From the NCBI GenBank assembly GCA_963674695.2, contig CAXXGI010000002.1:448001-512000 (forward strand): a stretch of DNA of 64,000 nucleotides, written 5' to 3'. Under the pieces are notes generated by a model. That model saw nothing but the letters and a program-made list of their open reading frames with translations. It searched no databases and was not told the DNA's origin. Position 1 is the first letter of the stretch, and each line of letters starts with the position of its first letter. Below, one piece after another: positions 4,688 through 42,831 of the stretch. The stretch comes from a bacterium (lineage in GTDB: Bacteria > UBA10199 > 2-02-FULL-44-16 > JAAZCA01). The translations under genes were made by a program, and so were the position numbers.

Positions 4688-4708
4688 TGTCATCCCCGCG
4701 AAAGCGGG
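4688..4708. repeat. truncated copy of TGTCAT(T/C)CCC palindromic intergenic repeat (dRS3/REP-like)
   Basis: tgtcatccccgcgaaagcggg matches the first hairpin of the fuller copies at 13690, 35671 and 62445. Confidence 0.55.
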
Positions 4709-4755
4709 CCTACGCCGCGCCGTAGTCGATTTGTAGCGCACTCAAGGGGGATTGT

Positions 4756-5202
4756 ATGAGATCTGTTTGCATCTGTTGCGTATTAGTTCTCCTCACCACC
4801 GCCTGCTCGCTGCGCGTGCCTGGTCTGGACGACCGCGTGGGCGACTTTGAGAAGTCGAATTTCGAGGCCAAGCAGGTGGCACGGCGCATCGCGTTTCAGA
4901 TGCGCGTAGTGCGCTCGCGCCCGATTATCAATGCCAAGACCAAGGATCCGGGTGTCGAGGTGACGGTCCAGGAGAAGGGTCGAAAGTACAACTTTAAGGT
5001 CTATAAAATCGCCTCCGAGGCGAACCTCAAGCGCATCGTCGCGACCTTTGACGGTATCGAGACGGTGTCGGCCGCGAAATCCAAGCAGGTCCGAAAGTGG
5101 CGCTATATGTCCCGCAAGGATCTCCTCTTCGACTATATGCTCATGCCCAGGGATATGGACGACGAGTTGGAGAAGCGATTTAAAAAGGCCGTCACACGCT
5201 GA
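4756..5202 (+). CDS. hypothetical lipoprotein
   Basis: 148-aa ORF with RBS aagggggg-like motif and a hydrophobic N-terminus ending in lipobox-like LTTA-C. Confidence 0.7.
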   Translation: MRSVCICCVLVLLTTACSLRVPGLDDRVGDFEKSNFEAKQVARRIAFQMRVVRSRPIINAKTKDPGVEVTVQEKGRKYNFKVYKIASEANLKRIVATFDGIETVSAAKSKQVRKWRYMSRKDLLFDYMLMPRDMDDELEKRFKKAVTR

Positions 5203-5206
5203 AACG

Positions 5207-5233
5207 AAAACCGGCCCCAAAAGAGGGGCCGGT
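5207..5233 (-). terminator. intrinsic terminator between convergent genes
   Basis: Stem accggcccc/ggggccggt; the A-run on the left reads as a U-tail on the minus strand. Confidence 0.7.
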
Positions 5234-5257
5234 GGTGGTTTGCCGTGTAACCGAGGT

Positions 5258-8251
5258 CTACTGGAGGCACATGAGGCCCGCGCACGGACAGGCACCGTTG
5301 CCGATGTCATCGCCGTCAAAGCAACCGATCCCCCAGACTTCCTCGTCTGAGGAATTGATGTACATCGTCATGCAGGAGATCGCGTCATCCACGTCGCCTT
5401 CGTTGACGCCCATTCCGGAGAGCATCCCACTCAAGTCAGCGTAGTTCACGCCGCCTGCGGCACCGCATGCGTCACCGACAACGAGAGTCGAACACGGGTT
5501 TCCTCCCGCATCATCCGTACACAACGGCGTATCCTGATACCTCTCACTCCACCGGGTGAAGGACAGGGAGTCATAGCTGTGCAGCGCGCTGTTATAATCC
5601 CAGAAGTTGTAGAGGATCAGCTTAAAGTCGGTGGTGCTGGTGCGATGGATGTGCATCTGCATGCGGACCTTTTCACCACTTTCGCAGTTGCCTTCAGCCG
5701 TGTCGGTTCCATACGCACACTCGATGCTGCCGAAGCTCTCCGGTGAATTGTGAGAACCGGGAAAGAGTTGCGGTGATTGTAGGACGAAAGAAGAAAGATT
5801 GACGACATCCCGCGAGACGTTCGCCACCGCGACCATCGGCTGGTTCCCGATCTCTCCTTGCGTTCCATCCCAACCGGTCATGTCGCGCAGCGTCAGTTGG
5901 TAGTTGTCCCCTCCCATGTCGTTGCAGTCGAGATAGAGCTTGCTGTCTATTGGCACGGCAGCAACGTTGAGGGAGGTGAGCTGGGCCTGATCGATCCAGT
6001 CGGGTGGGTTGCCTTGGAAGCCCGTGTTCTGCATGCTGCCATAAAAACCCTCGATGGCGTTGCAGACGTTTCCATTTCCATCCGACAGCGGAATGTTCGC
6101 CGCTATGGAGGATGCGTCGAAGAAAAACGGCGCGAAGAAGTTGAGGGCGCAGACGTCGATCGCGTACGGTAATATGCCGACATTGTTCATACAATAGGCG
6201 CTCACGCAGTTGTAGCAGTCTCCTTCAGGAATCGAGTCCGCATCAACGCCTGAGCAGGCCATCTCGCACTCTACCGGGAATCGGTCGGCATCTTCACTAT
6301 TATCATCATCATCATCATCGCCAGAGCCGGCGGGTGCGTCGCAGGCGTTTCCGTCGGCGATGGAGGCGACATAGGCCGAATACGGCAGACAGCCCGAATG
6401 CGAAATGCCTTCGCGGTCGTCATAGCCGACATAGGTGCTCAGGCAGGCGATCCATGCATCGCGGTCGTTGTTCCACGCAGCTGGGAGCGTATCCGAGTTC
6501 GTGAAAATCGTCGAGAGGTCAGTATAGTCAAAGGTATCGCCGTCTCCGGGGTTTCCTCCACTATAGGTGCATGAATATCCGCTGAATAAATTGTTGCATG
6601 CGCAGAAGCTCCCGTTCACCTCGGTGTCGCACATCTCTGGTGTCCCGCCGCTCCATCCGCATGAGCCCCCATCGTCGTCATCGTCGCCGAGCCCGCCAAT
6701 GCCGCCTACCATCAGGCTCATCAGGCCCGTTCGCTGCAAGATGACCAGCATGCCGGCGCCGGAGCACTGTTCCTGTCCGTCGGCACGATCGGCCAGGAGC
6801 TGAAAACACATCGTGAAACAGGGCGCCAGGTTGAGATCGGCACCGAAATTGCCGTTCAGTATGCCGGTGACCAACTCGTCTTGGACGCTTTGCATCTCCA
6901 GGATGCTCGCCATAAAATCGACCAGGTCCACGCCCTCGGTGGCGTCGCTCAGACAGGCGGTGACCCGGTTGAGTTCGGCCGGTGGGGTGTTGTTCGTCAC
7001 GTTGGAGATGAGATCGGCAAGACCGTCGCCACCACCATCATCATCATCTATGCTCGCCATCATGAACATCGTGAGGAAGACCTCGTGCTGGCCGCGACAC
7101 TTGTTGACCATACTGGCGGTGACGGCGTTTCCGGTTTTATAGTTGCAGTTGGTGTCCTCAACCAGATCTGAAATCGCGCTCAGTGCGGTGATGACGCGTC
7201 CATCTTGGGCATCGTAACAGCGCAGAAATCCACCCACGGTCGCATCATATCCGCTGCAATCGACGTCATCATCCATCTGTTGGGTGAGAATCGTTTCGTA
7301 GGTGCGCATGAGGGCCATGGTGCCCTGCATCGACTTGCTCGGATCGGCCCCGCCCTCTCTTGCACGCTGGAGGACCAGGTTGACCATCGTGGCATCGTTG
7401 ACGAAGCGCCATTCGCAGGCGGCAAGCGCCATGCCGAACTCCTCGGGTTCGGTCAGCTCGGCAAAATTCACCTGTTTGAGGATGTTGACAAAATCGCCGA
7501 CCGTTTCGTTTGCACCGCCGACGGCGATGCGCGCACGGACGAGCGCGTCGATTCCATTGCCATAGTTCTGGATGAAGAAGAGCTTGAGGTTTGCCACATC
7601 GCGCAAGACCGCGTCGATGTCGTCATACCCCTGTGGGTCCTGATGGAAGATGTGCGCGGCCACGAGATAGACGCTGGGAAGCCCCGTGGCGACATCCATG
7701 CTGATGCTGGCGTCGGCGGCCAGTTCCTCGTCGCTGAGGAAGGCGAGCGCCATGGTCGTTCCTTCATGGATCTCGCCGCAGGCGACATCGATCGACCCTT
7801 CGGTGGTGACGTTCGCACAGAGCCCCTCGATGAAGCAGTCGCTCTCGAGGTGCAGGATGGCCCCTTCGGTGGGGAGCAGGCTCGCATCCGTGACGTCGCA
7901 GGAAAAAGCGCCGACGGTGTCGACGACACAGGAGGCGATCTCCGTCGCGCCATCGAGCACCGAGATGGTGCAGCCAGTCAGCGGAACGGTTCCGGCCTCT
8001 TTGGCCACCGCTGCGCTGAGGGCATCCTCCGGCGTCATGGCCGCGATGACAGCGTCGGTCGGGATGGATGCCGTTCCGGCAAAGGTCGCCAGCGGCGGCG
8101 GGGTGGTCTCCCCCCCCTCGGTTCCCGCACCAGCGGTCGTTGCACCGGCCCCGCTGCCGCTTCCGCCGCACCCGATCCAGAAGAGGATCGCGCAGCTCAA
8201 CGCTACGAGCATCATCGTCCAGGAACGATTTCGATAGGATGTGTTCTTCAT
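5258..8251 (-). CDS. large acidic Cys-rich surface lipoprotein
   Basis: 997 aa with lipobox LFWIG-C, poly-Asp linkers (GDDDDD) separating Cys-rich modules, and a gggg-type RBS. Confidence 0.8.
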   Translation of the reverse strand: MKNTSYRNRSWTMMLVALSCAILFWIGCGGSGSGAGATTAGAGTEGGETTPPPLATFAGTASIPTDAVIAAMTPEDALSAAVAKEAGTVPLTGCTISVLDGATEIASCVVDTVGAFSCDVTDASLLPTEGAILHLESDCFIEGLCANVTTEGSIDVACGEIHEGTTMALAFLSDEELAADASISMDVATGLPSVYLVAAHIFHQDPQGYDDIDAVLRDVANLKLFFIQNYGNGIDALVRARIAVGGANETVGDFVNILKQVNFAELTEPEEFGMALAACEWRFVNDATMVNLVLQRAREGGADPSKSMQGTMALMRTYETILTQQMDDDVDCSGYDATVGGFLRCYDAQDGRVITALSAISDLVEDTNCNYKTGNAVTASMVNKCRGQHEVFLTMFMMASIDDDDGGGDGLADLISNVTNNTPPAELNRVTACLSDATEGVDLVDFMASILEMQSVQDELVTGILNGNFGADLNLAPCFTMCFQLLADRADGQEQCSGAGMLVILQRTGLMSLMVGGIGGLGDDDDDGGSCGWSGGTPEMCDTEVNGSFCACNNLFSGYSCTYSGGNPGDGDTFDYTDLSTIFTNSDTLPAAWNNDRDAWIACLSTYVGYDDREGISHSGCLPYSAYVASIADGNACDAPAGSGDDDDDDNSEDADRFPVECEMACSGVDADSIPEGDCYNCVSAYCMNNVGILPYAIDVCALNFFAPFFFDASSIAANIPLSDGNGNVCNAIEGFYGSMQNTGFQGNPPDWIDQAQLTSLNVAAVPIDSKLYLDCNDMGGDNYQLTLRDMTGWDGTQGEIGNQPMVAVANVSRDVVNLSSFVLQSPQLFPGSHNSPESFGSIECAYGTDTAEGNCESGEKVRMQMHIHRTSTTDFKLILYNFWDYNSALHSYDSLSFTRWSERYQDTPLCTDDAGGNPCSTLVVGDACGAAGGVNYADLSGMLSGMGVNEGDVDDAISCMTMYINSSDEEVWGIGCFDGDDIGNGACPCAGLMCLQ

Positions 8252-8323
8252 GATGCTACCCCCGCTTGAATTCCTACGATAGTACCAATGTGCACAGATC
8301 CTCTCTGTTCATCAGAATCATCC

Positions 8324-10765
8324 TCAAAACATGGCGCAGATGGGGTACGATGAGTCAATCGCACAGCCGTCCGCGATGCATTGCATGCATGCGCCAAAGA
8401 ATGGATTTCCGGTGTCATCAGGACCCTGAAGTGTTCCACAATACTCGTCGCTATTACACTCCGGCGGTATTTCATCGCCACCACCACCATCATCGTCATC
8501 ATCATCGCCACCGCCGCCGACACTGTTCGGGTCGTAATAGACCTTGGTGCACGATACAGGGTTTTCTCCTGATTCGGCGTCAGCCGGGATGGGACCGAAC
8601 CCGCAGTGGATGGCCATGCAGCCTGCTTCTCCCAACTCGCTGAAGCCGTTATAGTTCAGGCAGTACTTTTCATCGACCCAGCAGCCCAGCTGCGGTCCGC
8701 TCCAGCTTCCGGTCAGCGGCCAGTTGCTCAGATGGTAATAGGTATCCGCAACGGTTTGGTGATTGTCGCCGTCAAAGGTGAGGTCGAAGAGGTCTTCTCG
8801 CGTGTCACGATCGATGAACATGGGAGTGAGGTCAACGCCATCACCGTTGTACTTGGCGAGATTGAAGCGGCACTCCGAGTCGAGGCTCATCGCCAGCGTT
8901 CCGTCGGGGAGGATGTTGAGCGCATTGAGTCCAGCGATGTAGGTTGCGACTGCGGCTTCATCACCTTCAATGCCCGAGCAATCATCTTCAACCCAGTCAT
9001 AGCTGGCTCCGCCTTCATCCCGAGGGGCGGCGTCCCATAGGGTTTGTGAGCGTACGCTACAAGCGCCTCCTCCATCGTCATCATCGCCCTGCTGATCATC
9101 ATCATCATCACCCTGCTGATCATCATCATCATCGTCACCATCACCGTTATCGCCGCCCATCAGCGCCATCGGGTCGCCATCGGCGGCGAGGCGGACGATT
9201 CGCGTCATGCGGGAATCGATCATGACCGGTCCGTATGCAGGGAGCATGCAGGGCAGGCTCTCATCCATGCTGCCCAGGATATTGATGCCAAGGGCCTCGC
9301 CACAGACGGAGAGGCAGTCGATCCATTCCACCGTATCCTCCAGATCGACAGCACCCTGGGTCAGGTCTTGTCCATTCAGGATTCCACCGATGAAGTCGGC
9401 GGCGCCACCGCCGGCATCTTTGAACTTGGGCGAGGCGCTCGGGTTCACGGCTACGTTGGCCAGCTCGATGAGCGAGTGGCCGGGGATATCTCCGGCCATC
9501 ATGATCAGCATAAAGTCGCTCATGCCGTTGGGCATCGTGGTGATCGAGCAGGTGGCCGCTTGGCTCATCGCGGCGAGGGTGGCGGTATCAAGGCTCTCGC
9601 TCTGCAGGTCCACGCCCAGCGTCATGACGCCGAAGCCAAAGGCCTTCATGTGATCGCGGCAGACCTGCCAGCCGTCGGCCGAGGCGATGCCGCTCGGGCG
9701 CATCGTTGCTGAGACGCAGGCGGAGGTGATGGCACCGCCGCTCATCGCGTTGAGGACGAACTGACTGATCTGCGCGCCGCCCTCTTGGGCCAGCATCGCG
9801 GCATAGACCTCGTCGTAGCTGTCGCCCATGGCCCCCAGGTCGCGCAGGTAGTCGGTCAGGGCAAAGGCACCGAACATGAGCTGGGCGCGATTGGTGACGC
9901 CTTCCATCGCCATCATGGTGCCGAACATGCTGGACTGAATCGCTTCCGGTTCGAGGCTCAACACCGCGAAGAGCAGGTCATCGTCGGCGAGCGCCGCGGC
10001 GTTTTCGGTGATGACCAGCAGATACGGAACGATCGGCGTGATGTATCCATCGATGGCGGCGGAAAGGCCGTCGCCGAAGTTTTCCACGAAGGCCACGCGC
10101 CAGGCATAGATCTGAGCCAGCGCGGTATCGGTCGCTTCCGTCGCAGCGGAGAGATCGGCGTTGCCCATCGCCAGCGCGGCGGTGAAGCGATCGACGATCG
10201 CGGCGACGTTTGCGCCCATGGCCTTGCCCGTGTTTTCGCTCATGTTGGCGATGCTGGCCTGAACCGATTCATTCTGGAATGCCCAGTAGGCGAGCGTGGA
10301 GTCCATGTCGAAGCTGCCCGCATCGAAGGAGGCGCCATCGGGCATCGTGAAGGTGACTGCTCCCTGAATCAGGGGTTCGGTACCGCCTTCGGGCATGACC
10401 GTGAGGACCAGTTCGCTGCCGTCGGCCGGGATTTCACCCAGTTCATAGAAGGGGCAGTCCAGGATGCTGCTGAGGACCGTGCAGCTGACGACGGTTTCGC
10501 CGTTCAGCGCGAGGGTGGCGTCGTAGCTGACGCCGCTGATGTCGGCCACGGCCGAGGCATCGGCGCCCAGGACGGAACCCGCCGTTGGCGTGATGACGCT
10601 GCCGCTGATCGTCAGGATCGGGACCGGAGCGGAATCATCTCCCCCTCCTCCCCAGCCCTCGGGCGGATTCACGCCGGAGGAGCAGCCGAGCCAGAAGAGC
10701 ACGACGGTTGTGACCATGATGGCTATCGTCGAGAAGTAACGATACGTCAGTCTGTTGTTCCTCAT
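8324..10765 (-). CDS. large acidic Cys-rich surface lipoprotein, paralog of 5258-8251
   Basis: Start moved to ATG 10765 (MRNNRL, gggggt RBS). Lipobox LFWLG-C and the same architecture with poly-Asp linkers. Confidence 0.8.
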   Translation of the reverse strand: MRNNRLTYRYFSTIAIMVTTVVLFWLGCSSGVNPPEGWGGGGDDSAPVPILTISGSVITPTAGSVLGADASAVADISGVSYDATLALNGETVVSCTVLSSILDCPFYELGEIPADGSELVLTVMPEGGTEPLIQGAVTFTMPDGASFDAGSFDMDSTLAYWAFQNESVQASIANMSENTGKAMGANVAAIVDRFTAALAMGNADLSAATEATDTALAQIYAWRVAFVENFGDGLSAAIDGYITPIVPYLLVITENAAALADDDLLFAVLSLEPEAIQSSMFGTMMAMEGVTNRAQLMFGAFALTDYLRDLGAMGDSYDEVYAAMLAQEGGAQISQFVLNAMSGGAITSACVSATMRPSGIASADGWQVCRDHMKAFGFGVMTLGVDLQSESLDTATLAAMSQAATCSITTMPNGMSDFMLIMMAGDIPGHSLIELANVAVNPSASPKFKDAGGGAADFIGGILNGQDLTQGAVDLEDTVEWIDCLSVCGEALGINILGSMDESLPCMLPAYGPVMIDSRMTRIVRLAADGDPMALMGGDNGDGDDDDDDQQGDDDDDQQGDDDDGGGACSVRSQTLWDAAPRDEGGASYDWVEDDCSGIEGDEAAVATYIAGLNALNILPDGTLAMSLDSECRFNLAKYNGDGVDLTPMFIDRDTREDLFDLTFDGDNHQTVADTYYHLSNWPLTGSWSGPQLGCWVDEKYCLNYNGFSELGEAGCMAIHCGFGPIPADAESGENPVSCTKVYYDPNSVGGGGDDDDDDGGGGDEIPPECNSDEYCGTLQGPDDTGNPFFGACMQCIADGCAIDSSYPICAMF
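9075..9140. repeat. 24-bp coding tandem repeat (QQGDDDDD linker)
   Basis: ccctgctgatcatcatcatcatc occurs twice with 24-bp period. Confidence 0.75.
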
Positions 10766-10815
10766 AAGACCACCCCCGAAGATGGAGTCAGACACCTCTG
10801 TTCAACTCCTATGAG

Positions 10816-10832
10816 AGCAAGTTGCGTGCCAA
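10816..10832 (-). promoter_or_regulatory. sigma54 (-24/-12) promoter of the lipoprotein pair
   Basis: Minus strand reads TTGGCACGCAACTTGCT, a perfect TGGCACG-N4-TTGC match about 50 nt upstream of the start. Confidence 0.85.
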
Positions 10833-10967
10833 AGATGGGGGCTTCAATGTGAGAACTATCTATTTGAAATTATAGCGATATTTCGATTTGCGGGTTTTTT
10901 GGCGGGGGGGCGAAATGTCGGGAAATACCCAGGAGTGTCAACGAACTGACATCGTATTGAAATTCTG

Positions 10968-11900
10968 TCAATTTCCAAATCCGAAGAGCTCCGGGTGGAT
11001 GACGATGCCGCCGTTGGCAAACCAGCTCATCTTCTGCTGTGAAGAAAATGAATTGTTGGCGCGATCGCGAAAACGGTATTTTCGAAAGGGATTCACGCCA
11101 CCCCAGAGTTCGATATCGAGTCCCTTGATCGGTGTAAATCCCACGCCCGCGCCGGTGCGGATCTCCATCATTTCGAGGAAGTGATTCGGGATGCCGCCGC
11201 CCCCCTTCACATCCCACTGAAAGCCCTCGAATTCGCCTTTGAGGAAGAGACGGCAGAAGGAGGCGACGCGAAAGTTCATGCGCAGGTATTGCGGCAGGAT
11301 CGTCTCCAATTCGAAGAAGGAGGCGGCTCCCTTCGGGCGCACGACGAATCCGACGAGCGGCACCGGGAAGTAGATCCAGAACTGTTTCGAGACGAAGACG
11401 CCGAAGATGAGCGAGGCGGAATCGGAAAACGCCCACGCCGCGGTGGCCTGCCCCAGCCACTGCAGATCGTGCGAGCCGATATCCTTGAGATCCGATGAGA
11501 GCGTCGGCCAAAAACCGGCCGAGAAGAACCAGTTGTCCGAGAGAAAGGCCAGCGCGTCGAGCTGCAGGTTGATGAAGTAGGCGTTGCGCGAGTTGTTCGG
11601 AATGTAGTTGGTGACGTTATTGAGGATGAAGTGGTGCAGATTGAACTTGAGCCCCGGCGTGAAGTAGACGCGCTCCGTGATCGGGATGGGGATGTGCCCG
11701 CCGGCGTCGATCTCGTGGTAGCTGATCTTCTCCGTCGGCGAGTTCTTCAGCGCCGTGCTGGAGTCGTAGGTGTAGTTCACATGCGCCAGCCCCCGAAGCT
11801 CGGGCAGCAGTCCTCCGATGCGATCCTTGGCGTGGACCGGTGCCGCGGTGGCGATGAGTGCAAGAAGCGCGATGGTGGCCGAGGAGACGAGACGTTTCAT
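10968..11900 (-). CDS. outer-membrane beta-barrel protein (DUF6268-like)
   Basis: Signal peptide MKRLVSS...APVHA and alternating amphipathic aromatic strands. Start set at ATG 11900 with ggggg RBS. Confidence 0.65.
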   Translation of the reverse strand: MKRLVSSATIALLALIATAAPVHAKDRIGGLLPELRGLAHVNYTYDSSTALKNSPTEKISYHEIDAGGHIPIPITERVYFTPGLKFNLHHFILNNVTNYIPNNSRNAYFINLQLDALAFLSDNWFFSAGFWPTLSSDLKDIGSHDLQWLGQATAAWAFSDSASLIFGVFVSKQFWIYFPVPLVGFVVRPKGAASFFELETILPQYLRMNFRVASFCRLFLKGEFEGFQWDVKGGGGIPNHFLEMMEIRTGAGVGFTPIKGLDIELWGGVNPFRKYRFRDRANNSFSSQQKMSWFANGGIVIHPELFGFGN

Positions 11901-12076
11901 AGAATCCCCCATGTTTGATGATAGCCGCAGCCATACCAGCGCTTCCTGTCCTTTGCAATGCACCACCCGATACAAGAAAAAGAAAAATGATTCTCATCTG
12001 TTCCGTCAGTGGGTATAATGCGGCGATTGTGTCTGATATTTGACTCTTTTTTGAAGAGGGAATGTCCCTTGATTGC

Positions 12077-12093
12077 GGCATCGATCGTGCCAA
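12077..12093 (-). promoter_or_regulatory. sigma54 promoter candidate, with an IHF-like box at about 12153-12165
   Basis: Minus strand TTGGCACGATCGATGCC (GG-N10-GC). TATCAATATATTT upstream resembles the IHF consensus WATCAANNNNTTR. Confidence 0.65.
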
Positions 12094-12311
12094 CACAAGG
12101 GGGTTGCGGAGAGAGGATGCTCCGATCGTGGAGCAGGGACTTGTATCAGATGTATCAATATATTTATACTAGGGCATCGAGTGAAAAAGAGGCGAAGGGG
12201 CTGGATTGCACGACCGAACGCGCGCAAGCGTCATCATCAGGAGAGGCGCGATAGTGCGAGGGAAGACGTTGCTGTCGGCAATGATTCGGCCCGGAAAAAA
12301 GGGGAGCACAT

Positions 12312-13673
12312 ATGCGAAATATTCTGGGGGTGGGAGCAATTATTTTATGTCTGTTTTTTCTGGCCGCTTGTGGCGGGTCCAGCGCTGACGGAGGCTTGAG
12401 TGGTCCGACGATATCCACGATCGACGCGTTGCCGCGCGCGACGAGTCCCATGGTCACGAGCGCTTCCGCTTCGGTCGCTCGGAGTGTCGAAAAGGCGGCG
12501 GCGACGGGTATGAATCTCTGGACGACCGACGAGAGTTTTTTCGATACCAACAGTAGCATGTCTTCCTGTGAGGCGCTCAACACCGCGCGCGAATCGTTCG
12601 GGTCGGCGATGCAGGCCGATATGATCCTCTGCTATGTCCAGCAGATGAGCAGCGCCTTCACCGATCTGACCGACGCCGCGGGCGATCCGGTCAACGTCTA
12701 TGACGGGGCGTGGCACGTCATGAACCTCAACATCGCCGAGTGCACGACCGATGCCGACTGCAGCGGCGACGAATATCCCGAGGGGGCAACGTGCAACACG
12801 ACCACCGCGCGCTGTGAGGTGGACGGCGTCGATGTGGGACATACGCCCAATCGCATCAAGATGAAGATCGTCAAGAACGCGGCTGGTTCCATTACCGATT
12901 TTACCATGTACATGTGCAAGTATGACGATGGCGTATTGACCCAGAACGAATATACCAACCAGACGATCAGCGGTGCGAGTTTTGCGATGCGTGCGCTTGG
13001 ATTTCACTCCGAGGGAAACGGCGGTGTCGGCGCGCACCTGGTGGATGTCGACGGCACGCTCAACTCGAGTGGCGCGTTCGTGTCGCGCGAGATCGTCAAT
13101 CGCGGTATGTGGAGCCAGGACGATCACTTGAGCTGGCAGAATGGAACGCTCACGCAGGTGGAAGCGGGTTTGTACACCTATGAGGGGTATAACTACGGCA
13201 GCTACACCGACCCGAACGCGCAGACGGGCATCTATTCGAATTCGCTCTTTGCGGCAGCCCAGATCCTGGGCGACACCAGCAGCGATGTTTCGGCACTCGC
13301 ACTCGGCGACGGTGCGGTGCTCTTCGAGTACTCCGGAACATATGATGGGCAGAGTTGGGGGCCGGAGTCGGGCGAGGAGGCCTGGACCGGCGATAACGGC
13401 GAGCCCGTCGATCCCGCGAGTTCCAGCGACTACTATGCGACGGCCGCCGACGGAACGATTCCGGTCGTAGTCACCGATGCGACCTTCGATACGTTTATTG
13501 TCTTTGGTGCGAATGAAACCTGGGACTGCACTGACGACGTGAGCGTGGGGATCGTCGACATGCCGCAGTTTCAGGAGGCGACGATCAACGCGGCCTGTTC
13601 CGAATACGTGCAGAGCCACGATTGGATCAACTGCTGGGAGACCATCCAACAGCCGCTGGAACCGGTCGAGTAA
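12312..13673 (+). CDS. hypothetical lipoprotein with small Cys-rich insertion
   Basis: 453 aa with lipobox FLAA-C, a CTTDADC...TCNTTTARC module and RBS aaggggag. Confidence 0.8.
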   Translation: MRNILGVGAIILCLFFLAACGGSSADGGLSGPTISTIDALPRATSPMVTSASASVARSVEKAAATGMNLWTTDESFFDTNSSMSSCEALNTARESFGSAMQADMILCYVQQMSSAFTDLTDAAGDPVNVYDGAWHVMNLNIAECTTDADCSGDEYPEGATCNTTTARCEVDGVDVGHTPNRIKMKIVKNAAGSITDFTMYMCKYDDGVLTQNEYTNQTISGASFAMRALGFHSEGNGGVGAHLVDVDGTLNSSGAFVSREIVNRGMWSQDDHLSWQNGTLTQVEAGLYTYEGYNYGSYTDPNAQTGIYSNSLFAAAQILGDTSSDVSALALGDGAVLFEYSGTYDGQSWGPESGEEAWTGDNGEPVDPASSSDYYATAADGTIPVVVTDATFDTFIVFGANETWDCTDDVSVGIVDMPQFQEATINAACSEYVQSHDWINCWETIQQPLEPVE

Positions 13674-13689
13674 GCGTCGTTCGTTTTGG

Positions 13690-13765
13690 TGTCATTCCCG
13701 CAGGGTGTAAGCGGGAATCCCGATTGTCACGATACATCGAGATCCTCGCGTTCGCGGGGATGACA
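13690..13765. repeat. palindromic intergenic repeat (dRS3/REP-like)
   Basis: tgtcattcccgc...gcgggaatcc...gcggggatgaca with terminal inverted TGTCAT/ATGACA. Confidence 0.75.
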
Positions 13766-13779
13766 CATCGCGTGGTTTT

Positions 13780-13816
13780 CAAAACCCCCCGGTCGCTATT
13801 GCGGCCGGGGGGTTTT
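13780..13816. terminator. bidirectional intrinsic terminator
   Basis: aaaaccccccggtcgc/gcggccggggggtttt between convergent genes. Confidence 0.8.
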
Positions 13817-13846
13817 AAACGGTGTCACATTCATGAAGCCGAAGGG

Positions 13847-13876
13847 TGTCATTCCCGCGCAGGCGGGAATCTCGAT
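13847..13876. repeat. half copy of dRS3/REP-like repeat, followed by gtcacga-type heptamers
   Basis: tgtcattcccgcgcaggcgggaatctcgat. Confidence 0.7.
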
Positions 13877-13901
13877 TGTCACACGAATTACGTGTCACGA
13901 G

Positions 13902-15188
13902 TTACGGCTTCTCTATCTCCATATTCACCCGCCGATTCTTCGCGCGTCCCCACGGGGTTTTTCCGGAGTCTGCCGGCTGCGAGCTGCCCACGCCGACCGC
14001 CTCCATGCGGTCATCGGCGATACCGTGCAGGTTGATATACCACTTCACTTTCTCGGCGCGCTCCTGGGAGAGGCGTTCATTCTCACGCCGCTTGCCGGTC
14101 GCATCGGTGTGGCCGATGACGCGGATCTTCGTGTCGGGATGCGCAGTCAGGGCGTCGGCCACGACGCCGAGCTCCTGCGCGTCTTTGACGTCGGTGATCG
14201 CCGCGCTGTCGGTAGCGAAGTGCACGACGGTCGCCGGGATGATATCGAGCGAGAGCGCATCGGTTGGAAAATGTTTCGGCCGACGGCGCGGCGAGTAGGA
14301 GATCCCTGCGAGCACGCGAAACCTCGGCGAGCCGGAGCTGCGGATGATCCCCAAGCCGCCGCCGACGCTGGCGAGCAGTCCCGTGTTGCCGATCTCCCAG
14401 CGCAGACCCGCGCGCGCCTCAGTTGGGGTCTCCACCTTGCGCGAAAAAGGAGAGCGCAGTCGCGGTTCGGTGTTGATCTCAGCGGTGACCGAGAGCCCCT
14501 TCCAGACGCGCACGGCCGTGCCCAGGTCGAGCAAGATCTGACCGTCCTTGCGGATGTCGTTCATGAAGGTATAGCTCTGGCGCAGAAAGACACCCGCGTT
14601 GAGCGCGATCGACCAGCGCTCGAAGGGCTTTCCTTCCAGAATGACCTTTCCACCGCCGGCGAACGTGCCGTTGCCAAAGAAGTAGCGGCCGTATCCGGTG
14701 GGGATCGAGGCGAATGGCAGCACGGCGATGCCGAGGTATTTCGAGCGAAAGAGTTCTGACTTGAGATAGACGCGAATGTCCTCGACCACCATCTCGTTCT
14801 GCCGCGGCGAGCCCGCGACGTTCGGATTCTGGTAGGTGGTAAACCACCCCATCGGGATATCCACGCCCATGGAGAGCCACCGGTCGAGAAAACCGATGCC
14901 GCCGAGGAAGTGCTGCACCACGGTGTAGTCGACGATCCCCTGCACGCGCGTGCTGCCGCGGCTGAGTTGGAAGGGGCGATAGGCGTAGCTCGCCATCGTG
15001 CCGGCCTCCCACTCCCACTGGTCGAGGTTGCGGCTGCCCCAGACGCTGAAGTAGGGCGCGCCATCGGTGTTCGGCCGAAAGGCGTCGACCTCGAATCCCT
15101 TGGTGAGCGCGTGTGTGGTTGCGGAGGACAGGATCAGTCCCAGACAGATGACGACGATGGAGAGGCGAAAGAGACGAGGCATAGACAT
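13902..15188 (-). CDS. OmpA-family protein with N-terminal beta-barrel
   Basis: Signal peptide, and a C-terminal OmpA domain with motifs VHFATDS, IGHTD, N..LS..RA and NRRV. Confidence 0.85.
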   Translation of the reverse strand: MSMPRLFRLSIVVICLGLILSSATTHALTKGFEVDAFRPNTDGAPYFSVWGSRNLDQWEWEAGTMASYAYRPFQLSRGSTRVQGIVDYTVVQHFLGGIGFLDRWLSMGVDIPMGWFTTYQNPNVAGSPRQNEMVVEDIRVYLKSELFRSKYLGIAVLPFASIPTGYGRYFFGNGTFAGGGKVILEGKPFERWSIALNAGVFLRQSYTFMNDIRKDGQILLDLGTAVRVWKGLSVTAEINTEPRLRSPFSRKVETPTEARAGLRWEIGNTGLLASVGGGLGIIRSSGSPRFRVLAGISYSPRRRPKHFPTDALSLDIIPATVVHFATDSAAITDVKDAQELGVVADALTAHPDTKIRVIGHTDATGKRRENERLSQERAEKVKWYINLHGIADDRMEAVGVGSSQPADSGKTPWGRAKNRRVNMEIEKP

Positions 15189-15203
15189 TCCCCCAAGTTA
15201 CAC

Positions 15204-16578: not shown

Positions 16579-18645
16579 ATGCCCTTCGCCGATATTGCCA
16601 TTCCAAGTCCCATGCGCACGGCCTTTACCTATCTCGTTCCCGAGGGGATGCCCATCGAGGTGGGCATGCGTGCGGTCGTTCCCTTTCACCGACGGACGAT
16701 CGTGGGGGTTTGCCTGAGCGTCTCCGATGTTGCGCCTGAGGGGATCGCGGCGAATCGCTTTAAGCCGCTGCAGGAGGTCCTCGACGAGAAACCGATCTTT
16801 AGCGCGAAGCTCATGGAACTCATGCGATGGATGGCCGCCTACTACGGCCAACCGATCGGCGAGATCGTTCGCGCGGCACTGCCCGCGCGCCTGCTCAAGC
16901 AGGATGGCCCGCGCACGACGCGGCCCACTACACCTCTGGAGGTGATGTCCCTTCCGGACGAGCACTTTACGCTCAACGAGGGTCAGCAGCAGGCGTTCGA
17001 TGACTGCGTTTGCGCGACCGCTTCCGAGCATCCAGGCGCGGTTCTTCTGCACGGCATTACCGGGAGCGGCAAGACCGAGGTCTACCTGCGCCTCTTCGAA
17101 CGCCTGATCGAGGAGAAACGCCAGGGCTTGTTGCTCGTCCCCGAGATCGGGCTCACCTCTCAACTCGTCGGCCGCACAGCCGCGCGCTTCGGCGAGCGCA
17201 TCGCGGTCTATCACTCGGGGCTCACCGATGCGCAGCGCCATGAGCAGTGGCGTCGCATTCGTTCGGGCGAGGTCGATCTGGTCATTGGGACGCGTTCGGC
17301 GCTCTTCGCGCCGCTCGATCGCTTGGGCGCCATCGTCGTGGATGAGGAGCACGACAGTTCCTACAAGCAGGACGAGGGGGTGAACTATCACGGGCGTGAC
17401 GTCGCGGTGATGCGCGCGCATCTCGAGGGGGCACTCGTCGTCATGGGAAGTGCGACGCCGTCGCTCGAGAGTCTGGCCAACGTGCGCAACGGAAAGTATC
17501 GGCTGCATCATCTTCCCGTGCGCACCGGTGTGGCAACCCTTCCCTCCATCGAGATCGTCGACATGCGGCGCGATCGGCGGCGTCGCAAGGAGCATCCCAA
17601 CACCGAAGGGTGGCGTCGGATCGACGAACTTCACTCGCTCTCGCCCGAACTCTACGACGCCGTCGCCCAGACCTTCGATCGTGGCGAGCAGTCGCTCATC
17701 TTCATCGGACGTCGCGGCTTTGCCAGCATGATCCAGTGCGAGGATTGCGGCGAGGTCTTTCACTGCCCCAACTGCGACATCGCGCTGACGGCCCACGATA
17801 TGAATGGTGCCGGGCGGCTTTCCTGCCACTACTGCGACTATACGATTCCGGCGCCGGAGGCGTGTGCGGCCTGTCATTCGTCGAACATCGTTTCCCTCGG
17901 GCGCGGCACCGAACGCGTCGAGGCGGAACTGGCCGATTTTTTCCCCGAGGCGCGGATTGCGCGGCTCGACAGCGACATGGCCGCCAGCGCGAAGCGTCGT
18001 GGGCGCATCATCGATGACATGCGCCGCGGTGCGATCGACATCCTCGTCGGTACGCAGATGGTGACCAAGGGGCACGACTTTCCGGCGGTGACGCTCGTGG
18101 GGGTGATCTCGGCTGATCTCGCCCTGCACCTGCCGGATTTTCGCGCGGCCGAACGCACCTTTCAGCTCGTCACCCAGGTGGCCGGGCGTGCGGGGCGTGC
18201 CGACAAACCGGGGCGCGTGATCGTGCAGACGCACAACCCCGAACACTTTAGTCTTTTGGCCGCACGCGATCACGACGTGGAAGGCTTTGCGAGCGAGGAG
18301 CTCGCGCACCGCATGCTGCTGGGATATCCCCCGATCGTGCGGCTCGCCAATGTGCGTTTCTCCGCCACCGACTCGAAGTTTGCCGGCGATGCGGCCGAAC
18401 GGGTCACCGCCCTGCTGCGCAAGCATTCGGGCGCCCAGGCGGATGCGCAGGGTATCACCGTCCTCGGACCGGCGCCGGCGCCGTTGTCAAGAGTGCGCGG
18501 GCGCTACCGCTTCCACGCGCTCATCAAGGCCCCAACCGCCGTCGTGCTCACACGGTTTTTGGCGCAGGTGCGCCCGGAGATCGAAGCCATCCTTCCTCGT
18601 CGCGTGCGTTTGAGTATCGACGTCGACCCGACCAGCCTGCTCTGA
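16579..18645 (+). CDS. priA: primosomal protein N' (replication restart helicase)
   Basis: GITGSGKT, DEEH, four CxxC Zn ligands, GTQMVTKGHDF and DVDP C-terminus. Start is 16579 or 16546. Confidence 0.95.
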   Translation: MPFADIAIPSPMRTAFTYLVPEGMPIEVGMRAVVPFHRRTIVGVCLSVSDVAPEGIAANRFKPLQEVLDEKPIFSAKLMELMRWMAAYYGQPIGEIVRAALPARLLKQDGPRTTRPTTPLEVMSLPDEHFTLNEGQQQAFDDCVCATASEHPGAVLLHGITGSGKTEVYLRLFERLIEEKRQGLLLVPEIGLTSQLVGRTAARFGERIAVYHSGLTDAQRHEQWRRIRSGEVDLVIGTRSALFAPLDRLGAIVVDEEHDSSYKQDEGVNYHGRDVAVMRAHLEGALVVMGSATPSLESLANVRNGKYRLHHLPVRTGVATLPSIEIVDMRRDRRRRKEHPNTEGWRRIDELHSLSPELYDAVAQTFDRGEQSLIFIGRRGFASMIQCEDCGEVFHCPNCDIALTAHDMNGAGRLSCHYCDYTIPAPEACAACHSSNIVSLGRGTERVEAELADFFPEARIARLDSDMAASAKRRGRIIDDMRRGAIDILVGTQMVTKGHDFPAVTLVGVISADLALHLPDFRAAERTFQLVTQVAGRAGRADKPGRVIVQTHNPEHFSLLAARDHDVEGFASEELAHRMLLGYPPIVRLANVRFSATDSKFAGDAAERVTALLRKHSGAQADAQGITVLGPAPAPLSRVRGRYRFHALIKAPTAVVLTRFLAQVRPEIEAILPRRVRLSIDVDPTSLL

Positions 18646-18735
18646 CGCAAAAAGCGCATATAAATTGAATAGTTATATAGTCTCTCTCCAGAGGGCCGTT
18701 TTTTCTATTTGGCGGCATTTTTTTTCATCTCACAC

Positions 18736-18764
18736 GCAACTTTGCCTCCCCCTTCAGCCGATAA
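18736..18764 (+). promoter_or_regulatory. sigma28-like promoter GCAAC-N17-CCGATAA
   Basis: GCCGATAA is the canonical FliA -10; the same bipartite motif recurs at six other intergenic sites. Confidence 0.7.
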
Positions 18765-18769
18765 TACCA

Positions 18770-18851
18770 ATGGAAGCAGCAAGAGCAGTACTGAGATTGA
18801 CCCCCCCCTTTTGGGCCCTTCAGCGATAGTGTTGGAGGGTCCTTTTTTTTT
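18770..18851 (+). ncRNA. candidate small RNA (or 19-aa leaderless peptide)
   Basis: About 80 nt bounded by the sigma28-like promoter and a strong terminator. It contains a C8 run and the ORF MEAARAVLRLTPPFWALQR at 18770-18829. Confidence 0.5.
18813..18851 (+). terminator. intrinsic terminator
   Basis: gggcccttcagcg-atag-tgttggagggtcc hairpin followed by T9. Confidence 0.8.
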
Positions 18852-19027
18852 CGATGCAACACGGTTTTTTCGCAGGAAAAAACGTTCATCGCATCGAGAA
18901 CCCGCCAACGGTGTCGTGGCGGGTCATGAAAAGGCGGATTGTCAGAACCGCTTGAAATGATACGGGGTTCTTGGTAGGGGAGAGGCGCTCGCTTTAAAGC
19001 GGGCGGGAGAGGTGGTATCATTCTAGT

Positions 19028-19549
19028 ATGATAAGGGAAATCGTTACCCATCCGGATCCGGTGCTCACCCTCGTGGCCGAAGTGGTCGACGCGGTCGATG
19101 AGGAGATCCGTGAGCTCGTCGCCGACATGATCGAGACGATGATCGACGGCGACGGCGTGGGCCTGGCCGCCCCGCAGGTCGGGGTGTCGCTGCGCGTGAT
19201 CGTGGTCGATGTGCACGACGGCGAAGGGGCGACGCCGATGATCAACCCGGTCATCGTCGAACGCGATGGCGAGATCGCCTTCGAAGAGGGGTGTCTGTCC
19301 GTCCCCGACTTTCGCATCTCGATCGACCGGAGCGAGCGCGTCCGGGTCCGATTTCTCAACGTCGATGGGGATGAGCAGGAGTGTGATGCCGAAAACCTCA
19401 AGGCCGTGGCCATCCAGCACGAGATCGATCACCTCGACGGCCGACTCATCATCGACCGCGCCAGTCGCCTCAAGCAGGACCTCTATGTGCGCAAGGTTCG
19501 CAAACGTCGCCGCGAGGAGAAGGAGGGGAAAGAGCAGTACACCTTCTGA
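19028..19549 (+). CDS. def: peptide deformylase
   Basis: GVGLAAPQ, EGCLS and QHEIDHLDG. Confidence 0.97.
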   Translation: MIREIVTHPDPVLTLVAEVVDAVDEEIRELVADMIETMIDGDGVGLAAPQVGVSLRVIVVDVHDGEGATPMINPVIVERDGEIAFEEGCLSVPDFRISIDRSERVRVRFLNVDGDEQECDAENLKAVAIQHEIDHLDGRLIIDRASRLKQDLYVRKVRKRRREEKEGKEQYTF

Positions 19550-22811: not shown

Positions 22812-23649
22812 CGGGCACCTCGCTGAGATTGAAGAGCTGTAGGTTGAGCTGATAGATGACATCGGCCGCTTCTCCCTCGGCCATGAACGCATGCAGCTCG
22901 CGTTTGAACGCGTGGATGCGGCGCTTGACCTCCGCGATCTTCTCCTTCGAGACGGCGACGGTCAGCGCCGAGATGTCGCGATGCTGCGCCTGGCTGCGAT
23001 CAATCGATTCGCGCGCCTTTTCAATCATCTGGTGGTGGAAGTTCGCGGCGGCCAGCGATGCGACCTCATAGACCGTTCCGAGATGGCGTTCCGATTGCAC
23101 GATGCGTCCCTCATCGGTGCGCGTCCAGAGGCCGAGCCGAAAGAGCAGTTCCATCGCTTCAGTCGCTTCACAGGTGCTGATGCGCGGTGTGAGCCGGGCG
23201 GCGATCCACTTCGGGTCCTCGCGAAATGTGGGGAGCAGGACCATTTCGCGCACGGCGGCGAAATACCATTTGGACAGATACTCGTACTGATCCTTCTCGA
23301 TGTGGCGAACCTCGATGTAGCCCTTCGAGGAGGCCAGTCGCTGATAATAGTGATTCTTCTCCTCGTTCGTCTTGGCCTGGTTGAACAGGACGAGATTTTC
23401 AAAAAATGCGCTCTCGCGCTTCTTGAGTTTGAGTCCCTTCGCGAATTTTCGGATCGTGCCGTTGCCCAGGCTCTTGCGTCCGGTGATCACCTGCCAGAGA
23501 TGGTTGTCGGAGGAGAGCCCGGCCGTGCGCGAGAAGAGGCGATAGGAGTAGCTCGGGTTCTCGCGCTTCTTCCACGCATAGAACGCCTTGAGATAGGCCC
23601 GATAATCGGTGAAGGCGTAGAGGTTGGGTTTGTCGGGACGCGCGGTCAT
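22801..23649 (-). CDS. TIGR02147-family protein (HTH + DUF4423-like)
   Basis: DYRAYL...NPSYSYR.F, WYFAAVRE, NFHHQMI, RDISALT and YQLNLQLF pattern; overlaps the downstream lipoprotein start by 11 nt. Confidence 0.85.
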   Translation of the reverse strand: MTARPDKPNLYAFTDYRAYLKAFYAWKKRENPSYSYRLFSRTAGLSSDNHLWQVITGRKSLGNGTIRKFAKGLKLKKRESAFFENLVLFNQAKTNEEKNHYYQRLASSKGYIEVRHIEKDQYEYLSKWYFAAVREMVLLPTFREDPKWIAARLTPRISTCEATEAMELLFRLGLWTRTDEGRIVQSERHLGTVYEVASLAAANFHHQMIEKARESIDRSQAQHRDISALTVAVSKEKIAEVKRRIHAFKRELHAFMAEGEAADVIYQLNLQLFNLSEVPDET

Positions 23650-42717: not shown

Positions 42718-42831
42718 GACTCCCCCCTTACACGAAGCCATGCCAGTGTAGCACTTTTATGAGAAAAAACAACAGGGTGGGAGGTTGTTCCGGGTGGGGA
42801 ACGGGCGCCGAGCTCCGGTGTGGATCTCCTG

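Follow-up and report, generated by a model that had tools for sequence, protein, structure and literature searches.

The spacer between priA and def was analysed in a 64,000-nucleotide stretch of DNA from a bacterium of the lineage UBA10199 (GenBank assembly GCA_963674695.2, contig CAXXGI010000002.1, positions 448,001–512,000 of the forward strand), hereafter called the window. The spacer contains a short unit composed of a FliA-type promoter, a predicted RNA of about 80 nt and an intrinsic terminator, and this unit is very probably a real and independent small-RNA (sRNA) gene that occurs phylum-wide. The RNA contains an unpaired C/U tract complementary to a minority class of G-rich ribosome-binding sites, and it is proposed below that the tract pairs with these sites and represses the messages that carry them.

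Architecture and conservation of the unit

The priA gene ends at 18645 and def, which is followed by fmt, starts at 19028, leaving a spacer of 382 bases without a gene-sized open reading frame (ORF) on the + strand. From priA to def the spacer contains a priA-proximal hairpin with T6, the FliA-type promoter, an ATG, C8, T4, a hairpin, T9, three more hairpins and a sigma70-like promoter match (Table 1). A preliminary description, made from the letters of this DNA, had reported a promoter motif followed by about 80 nt, a 13-bp hairpin and T9 without a gene-sized ORF, as well as a C8 run just 5' of the terminator, and all of these elements were present. In the terminator scan the hairpin had 13 pairs including G-T, seven of which were G-C. 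The start of the predicted RNA was placed 6–8 bases past the -10 box, at a conserved R-T-R-R-A word. The single parts were unremarkable on their own. The word GCCGATAA occurred four times in the window compared with 1.68 expected, a count reached in 9 of 100 shuffles, and the fold energy of the 81-nt RNA was ordinary (z = -0.66 against shuffles). It was conservation that set the unit above chance. The C8 run had no length variants, and positions 18600–19100 had no differences, in contigs of three DNA runs from one study, which may include the window's own source and, being DNA contigs, have no bearing on transcription.

Table 1. Positions of the unit, the other spacer features and the candidate target sites (window numbering unless another contig is given)
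Feature	Position	Strand	Basis or remark
-35-like box CAACTT of the FliA-type promoter	18737..18742	+	first four bases invariant or nearly so in the 20- and 33-copy alignments
-10 box GCCGATAA	18757..18764	+	exact match; CCGATAA nearly invariant across copies; 14-base gap from CAACTT
ATG opening a 19-codon frame	18770-18772	+	six bases past the -10 box
Predicted small RNA, ~80 nt	18770..18851	+	conserved as one unit at order and phylum level; 3' end within the T run
C8U4 tract, proposed seed	18801..18812 (C8 18801-18808, T4 18809-18812)	+	C5–C9 then U3–U6 in 33/33 copies
Terminator hairpin, 12–13 bp, loop word R-A-U-W-G-U	18813..18842	+	terminator scan, covariation, RNAalifold
T9, terminator U tail	18843..18851	+	every aligned copy has a T-rich run 3' of the hairpin
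Weak terminator-like hairpin (5 bp) with T6	18682..18704 (hairpin 18682-18695)	+	directly 3' of priA
Sigma70-like promoter match before def (TTTAAA, 17 bases, TATCAT, with TG)	18993..19021	+	consensus match alone; ends 6 bases 5' of the def ATG
OPT oligopeptide transporter, best candidate target	G000 C3:555460-557496		G9; -26.4 kcal/mol, first of 2230
G5 Shine-Dalgarno run of an OmpA-domain protein (13905-15182), candidate target	15190..15194	-	homologue comparison
G6 Shine-Dalgarno run of a 468-aa protein without Pfam family, candidate target	42722..42727	-	seed duplex -22.1 kcal/mol, ninth of 2230; putative pairing
G5 run of a 997-aa protein without Pfam family, candidate target	8259..8263	-	by inference

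The genome holding the window (G000) is rated 100% complete and belongs to family f1, with f2, f3 and f4 as the other families of its order. When 61 related genomes were searched at the DNA level, bases 84–206 of the spacer (window 18729–18851) were 72–77% identical in other genera of f1. In the remaining families of the order, identity was 81–89% for the C tract and the hairpin, and no conservation was seen in the rest of the spacer. The aligned copies shared a near-invariant CAAC..., a gap of 12–14 bases and (N)CCGATAA, with the R-T-R-R-A word conserved 6–10 bases beyond the -10 box. The middle or 5' part varied in length through insertions and deletions that were not multiples of three. It was followed by C5–9, T3–6, the hairpin and a T run, which all copies had in common.

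The hairpin was supported by covariation in a MAFFT alignment that was not fitted to structure. In this alignment, 99.2% of 240 cells were paired, 6 of the 12 pairs were changed on both sides in a compensatory manner, and none of 500 shuffles was as good. When the partner was shifted by 1–3 columns as a control, pairing fell to 28–69%. The G-U pairs made up about one fifth of the hairpin cells and correspond to C-A mismatches on the opposite strand, which identifies the + strand as the folding strand. RNAalifold independently found the same helix in the 33 copies and left everything upstream, including the C tract, unpaired. In the ensemble of the G000 RNA, the C bases of the tract had an unpaired probability of about 0.7–0.8. 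The C5–9 U3–6 tract was the sole conserved unpaired part of the RNA body, and the loop word and the lower stem of the hairpin were conserved in sequence beyond the needs of termination.

Covariance models were built from 20 copies (R1) and from 33 copies (R2) and compared with 93 genomes, which make up both the phylum and the class; the order comprises 22 of them. All 22 genomes of the order were matched by R1 at E ≤ 1e-3, 21 of them at E ≤ 7.2e-9 with a 78% complete genome as the exception, and in the phylum R1 matched 43 of the 93 genomes at E ≤ 1e-4. R2 matched 51 of the 93 at E ≤ 1e-4; at the stricter cut-offs of 1e-6 and 1e-12 there were 46 and 32 matched genomes, respectively. Its matches to the 33 training copies hold by construction because the model was built from them. 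Nine R1 matches outside the training families were viewed individually; promoter, C/U tract and hairpin were the same in these, and a small 5' hairpin was often present as well. Matches were absent from families f5 (0/3), f10 (0/10) and f11 (0/6) and were found in one of 14 genomes of f7; a copy under another promoter would escape both models, since both include the promoter. Public records of members of the phylum are labelled Deltaproteobacteria, Bdellovibrio sp., Myxococcota or Pseudomonadota.

The unit was also considered as a cis-acting element, that is, as the true terminator of priA and/or as a terminator-controlled leader of the downstream gene (def-fmt, or an FHA-domain gene elsewhere). 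Its placement would suit such a role in two settings. The priA–RNA–def order was found in f1 only, always with the same orientation, and in f2, f3, f4 and f18 the unit had a divergent DeoC or PNP_UDP_1 gene on one side and, directly 3' of it, an FHA-domain gene in the same orientation. However, the unit had its own conserved promoter in 33 of 33 copies, and the other terminator-like hairpin right behind priA means that priA need not depend on the downstream one. In f2, f3, f4 and f18, a close-set TTGAC-N17-TATA-type promoter match was present between the T run of the RNA and the FHA-domain gene, and with these sigma70-like boxes 3' of the terminator the gene is independent of the RNA's promoter. 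The downstream gene was swapped between families, and in f6 and one f18 genome the next gene was convergent. The FHA-domain orthologue of G000 (C3:197382–198383) manages without the unit, as it kept its sigma70-like boxes while the place of the RNA was held by heptamer repeats. No alternative anti-terminator pairing was conserved among the 33 copies in RNAalifold. The preliminary description had allowed that the hairpin might simply terminate priA behind an unconserved promoter motif. Since the unit kept both promoter and terminator through a change of address, to places without priA or def, a mere priA terminator is ruled out and a leader or attenuator role is unlikely. The cis-acting reading as a whole was judged very unlikely, and the unit is, as far as comparison of the loci tells, an independent gene and not part of priA or def.

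Two further explanations concern the product of the unit. The preliminary description had observed that the predicted +1 coincides with an ATG and had offered a leaderless 19-aa peptide, MEAARAVLRLTPPFWALQR, as an alternative to an RNA. The ATG and the open 19-codon frame behind it are indeed present in G000, but at the aligned position only 23 of the 33 copies had ATG, GTG or TTG and the other 10 had ATA or GTA. The distance from the start to the C tract was spread over all three frames, the insertions and deletions of the 5' part were not in multiples of three, and the products ranged from 3 aa to no stop, with no residues kept past the first two or three. The peptide was therefore rejected, as extremely improbable, on start codon, frame and residues. 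A chance pairing of a promoter-like word with an ordinary terminator, giving a product without importance, would agree with the lack of significant enrichment of the -10 word on its own and the ordinary fold energy given above. Against it, the unit was conserved across genera, families and orders with a covarying stem, was retained despite its moved genomic location, and was duplicated in G004 (two tandem copies, L037 1501–1850) and G070 (two copies 1.4 kb apart, L067 1501–3058), so that chance is scarcely credible. The conserved unit, the covarying hairpin and the covariance-model matches bear out the claim of a discrete small-RNA gene that has both a FliA-type promoter and a terminator of its own, and in the comparison of relatives that the preliminary description had proposed, the structure was conserved and the codon frame was not.

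At the ancestral site of the RNA, between the DeoC-like and FHA-domain genes, G000 had lost the unit and carried a heptamer run in its place (C3:~198400–198480, locus L184). In G031 (L064 712–748), a second copy of the terminator hairpin alone was located about 750 bases from the gene.

The whole priA–def spacer folded much better than its shuffles (z = -4.89, 0/100). The remainder of the spacer, 18852–19027, contained the three further hairpins, and pieces of spacer bases 215–282 matched unrelated contigs in relatives, like a dispersed repeat. No well-spaced Shine-Dalgarno site was evident for def near 18993–19030. Because of this, and because the sigma70-like match ends so close to the ATG, the def message may be leaderless.

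The promoter and its predicted sigma factor

The two-box motif of the unit was found at no fewer than 104 sites in G000 (at least 104), mostly 5–40 bases 5' of long ORFs, and its sites within the window included those before the genes starting at 23649 (- strand) and 56147. In a study of Bdellovibrio (PMC3627812), a CCGATA box was reported for 92 of 140 attack-phase promoters and was assigned to FliA, and the -10 box of the unit matches the box given there. The best sigma candidate in G000 was a protein of 289 aa (C3:8530–9396), which scored 132 bits with FliA/WhiG, below the curated cut-off of 189.6. Its top families were FliA/WhiG, WhiG and FliA, with SigB/F/G behind. A FliA/WhiG-like sigma was kept in 91 of the 93 phylum genomes, and the two genomes without it were 73% and 78% complete. 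Sigma28-dependent transcription of the unit, with recognition by the FliA/WhiG-like sigma, is a reasonable inference from these matches.

The complete genome G000 had no match to Flagellin_N and no match to Flg_bb_rod, and FHIPEP export protein was the only one found of the flagellar-type genes searched. In the absence of flagellin and rod genes the sigma programme is not flagellar, and in G000 it looks like a flagellar-type sigma that was re-used as a global regulator. The sigma28 programme of the preliminary description thus stands with respect to the FliA-type promoter and the presence of a FliA/WhiG-like sigma, which falls below the curated cut-off, and is to be read as non-flagellar.

A sibling unit was located at C2:331057–331166 (- strand) of G000, about 117 kb before the start of the window, and scored 41 bits with R1. 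Its FliA-type promoter was the same and its 5' word similar, and it also had a strong terminator and an unpaired CU-rich tract even closer to the 16S tail. Two other short units with a FliA-type promoter and a terminator and without an ORF were observed at C1:~836870 and C1:~805955, both on the - strand. The former had a G-rich 5' part, GGGG-AAA-GGGG, which could in principle pair with C-rich RNAs.

The C/U tract and G-rich ribosome-binding sites

The 16S tail of G000 was canonical (CACCUCCUUUCU), and the commonest Shine-Dalgarno words were AGGAG and GGAGG. Among 2230 genes of our own calls, 175 (7.8%) had a run of at least five G at the ribosome-binding site. The six G-rich sites cited in the preliminary description all exist, with G5 before 4756, 8251, 10765 and 11900, G4 before 12312 and G6 before 42717. 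A AAAGGGGG-type site paired with the 16S tail contains one G-U wobble where an A would be perfect, whereas paired with the RNA tract it contains G-C and A-U pairs only.

The unit is proposed to encode, as a gene in its own right, a regulatory RNA of about 80 nt that acts in trans. Its promoter, CAACTT-N14-GCCGATAA, is probably read by a FliA/WhiG-like alternative sigma, the same that would drive more than 100 promoters in the non-flagellated G000. Transcription probably begins 6–8 bases past the -10 box and ends at the hairpin with its U9, giving an RNA with a variable 5' part, an always-unpaired C5–9 followed by U3–6, and a terminator hairpin with a conserved base and loop. The C/U tract would pair with ribosome-binding sites of the form A2–4 G5–9. 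On these sites the RNA would out-compete the 30S subunit, because its pairing is G-C throughout compared with one G-U wobble for the 16S tail. Messages with GGAGG-type sites would be left alone, and a minority class of about 8% of genes, many of them for envelope proteins, would be repressed. The candidate targets would be led by the OPT transporter, with the DsbA-like periplasmic and OmpA-domain proteins as candidates within f1. Pairing of the C/U tract with the G-run sites is, on balance, the probable mode of action.

The 16-nt seed was compared with positions -30 to +6 of every gene. At ≤ -18 kcal/mol, 67 duplexes were found at ribosome-binding sites and 12 in an internal control region. 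The 45-nt 5' part, when compared with 90-nt start regions, gave long loop-ridden duplexes with many genes and no discrimination. The top 20 seed candidates were rich in envelope functions and included the OPT transporter, YceG, two DsbA-like proteins, an FG-GAP/cadherin protein, an F5/8-type-C protein, a subtilase, MscS, a porin and an L,D-transpeptidase. Across genomes, the pattern of A-G6, 3–9 bases and ATG was in 3.61-fold excess over its mirror pattern in 32 genomes with a strong RNA match and in 2.38-fold excess in 16 genomes with a middling match.

The best candidate target was the OPT transporter. A run of at least five G was kept in 14 of 18 clear orthologues (at least 57% identity), in 17 of 24 homologues and in 4 of 4 sequences fetched from f18, f9 and f23. 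The leader around the G run was not conserved, and the OPT paralogue next door had an ordinary GGAG site. The G was kept across deep divergence although a one-step change from G to A would improve pairing with the 16S tail, which suggests another pairing partner. The orthologue (E ≤ 1e-150) was present in 21 of the 93 genomes, all in RNA-bearing families, and hence there is no RNA-negative comparison group. In f1, the DsbA-like gene had at least five G in 9 of 13 genomes (two could not be resolved) and the best homologue of the OmpA-domain gene in 10 of 13, the orthology of the latter being uncertain because of its many paralogues. The occlusion of G-rich sites suggested in the preliminary description is plausible: the tract is predicted to be unpaired and is complementary to a minority class of sites, which is kept in at least one gene throughout the phylum and in another two within f1.

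Several observations weigh against this reading. The reversed seed gave 43 duplexes at ribosome-binding sites and 10 in the control at the same cut-off, so most of the seed excess reflects purine-rich sites generally. The A-G6/ATG excess was also 2.20-fold in 45 genomes without an RNA match, and the rank test on this excess (p = 6e-5) overstates the case since the genomes are related. The DsbA-like and OmpA-like sites were canonical in f2–f4, which carry the RNA, with at least five G in one of eight and none of nine genomes of these families, respectively. Two of the top candidates were set aside: the G9 run of YceG falls within the end of the preceding gene and was not kept in relatives, and MscS had no clear orthologues, with weak matches in 5 of the 22 genomes of the order. 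Hfq (PF17209, 0 matches) and ProQ were not found in G000, and a seed-only model does not account for the strong conservation of the hairpin's loop and stem base. The conserved AAAGGGGG site may also be nothing more than a strong Shine-Dalgarno sequence.

Some of these points would be accounted for if the RNA is real and acts by binding or titrating a protein rather than by pairing with messages, with a KH-domain (KhpA-type) protein or another binder of C-rich single strands reading the base and loop of the hairpin and the C/U tract. The conservation of the loop word and lower stem fits such a contact, as does the small advantage of the seed over its reversed control in the target statistics. 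A KhpA-type KH protein is encoded in G000 (86.4 bits), and CsrA, like Hfq and ProQ, was not found there. On the other hand, no protein was tied to the RNA by neighbourhood, as the contexts differ between families, and the conserved complementary site in the OPT leader fits pairing. To our knowledge, a single short C tract is also unlike the known multi-site protein sponges. Action through a protein was accordingly regarded as unlikely, though clearly less so than the cis-acting element or the peptide.

A more specific form of the pairing model is offered tentatively, as a possibility rather than an expectation. The RNA would mimic the anti-Shine-Dalgarno tail with the U of CCUCC changed to C, sequestering GGGGG-type messages and ignoring GGAGG-type messages. 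A FliA-like developmental sigma, in a phylum without flagella, would use this RNA and its CU-rich sibling to silence, at the level of translation, a dedicated group of envelope and transport genes, in which the G in place of A would be kept by selection as an address label. If true, such selectivity of G-C over G-U would explain why a sub-optimal GGGGG site persists in a minority of genes, and one short RNA could address these genes as a group without a chaperone.

The preliminary description had further linked the RNA to repression of sigma54 surface proteins. A strict sigma54 motif was found 5' of 8 of the 175 G-run genes and of 38 of the 2055 others, a difference too weak to build on, and this link was set aside; a perfect TGGCAC-N5-TTGC box preceded one of the six cited genes (10765, about 50 bases upstream). 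Lineage-specific genes were clustered at window positions 4700–15200; apart from one DUF6268 and one OmpA-domain protein they mostly lacked a Pfam family, and most of them had G5 sites. The spacer between the divergent OPT paralogues (C3:557650–557790, L154) contained a long inverted repeat and about four tandem units of ~19 bases before the second OPT gene.

Relation to known small RNAs

The search of Rfam suggested in the preliminary description matched no family. Rfam 15 gave nothing on the RNA body within window positions 18300–19300 at E ≤ 10, the subthreshold matches there being DicF (19.4 bits; gathering cut-off 48), STnc100 (16.8; 47) and L20_leader (14.2; 58.7). Eight loci with homologues or the paralogue gave no matches at E ≤ 0.1. 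By sequence and by model, the unit appears to belong to none of the families compared, and in mechanism it would be closest to the RNAs with C-rich seeds.

Among the latter, RsaE/RoxS has several short C motifs, placed in loops, which pair with the G-rich ribosome-binding regions of several messages. The C-rich motifs of sX13 meet G-rich motifs near translation starts. RepG of Helicobacter pylori has a C/U-rich stretch in its terminator loop, which pairs with a phase-variable homopolymeric G repeat whose length sets the strength of regulation. The tract of the unit differs from that of RepG in being linear, and the lengths of the C run and the G run both vary between species here. The unit resembles RsaE/RoxS of Firmicutes (PMC6158497, PMC8216469) in being a small trans-acting RNA, as proposed, with unpaired C-rich motifs, a wide taxonomic range and an intrinsic terminator. 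It differs in its single homopolymeric C5–9 with U's, which abuts the terminator, in the lack of an Rfam match, and in promoter class and phylum.

The 6C sRNA of Actinobacteria has C-rich loop motifs in hairpins that bind several messages independently of a chaperone, according to PMC6486639. The unit shares the unpaired C-rich motif, and chaperone independence would fit G000, in which Hfq and ProQ were not found. The tract of the unit is instead single-stranded and linear, with the variable 5' part on one side and the terminator on the other, again without an Rfam match. In Xanthomonas, sX13 is a conserved and abundant sRNA that affects type III secretion genes, as stated in PMC3771888. G000 has the FHIPEP export gene, but the unit differs from sX13 in architecture and phylum and nothing links it to secretion genes.

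With respect to its promoter, the unit resembles the sigma28-dependent sRNAs in being a small RNA from a FliA-type promoter. PMC10578931 describes UhpU, MotR, FliX and FlgO of E. coli as sigma28-dependent RNAs that derive from untranslated regions and act on flagellar synthesis, whereas the unit stands alone as a gene, and its genome has neither flagellin nor rod genes. FliA- and RpoN-dependent sRNAs were reported for C. jejuni in PMC11187230. In Bdellovibrio bacteriovorus, PMC3627812 gives three attack-phase sRNAs with FliA promoters and a global role of FliA that extends far beyond flagella. The likeness of the unit to these sRNAs (APsRNA3, 6 and 7) is by description only. The FliA-type sigma of G000, with its more than 100 predicted promoters and no flagellin or rod genes, resembles that global attack-phase role reported for FliA. 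The unit represents a new family of sRNA, although its kind is known, and is set apart from the named comparators, for which the literature was searched by their names rather than by that of the lineage. With it an uncultured phylum-level lineage gains a well-defined regulatory RNA, for which a covariance model, a promoter class and candidate targets open to testing are at hand.

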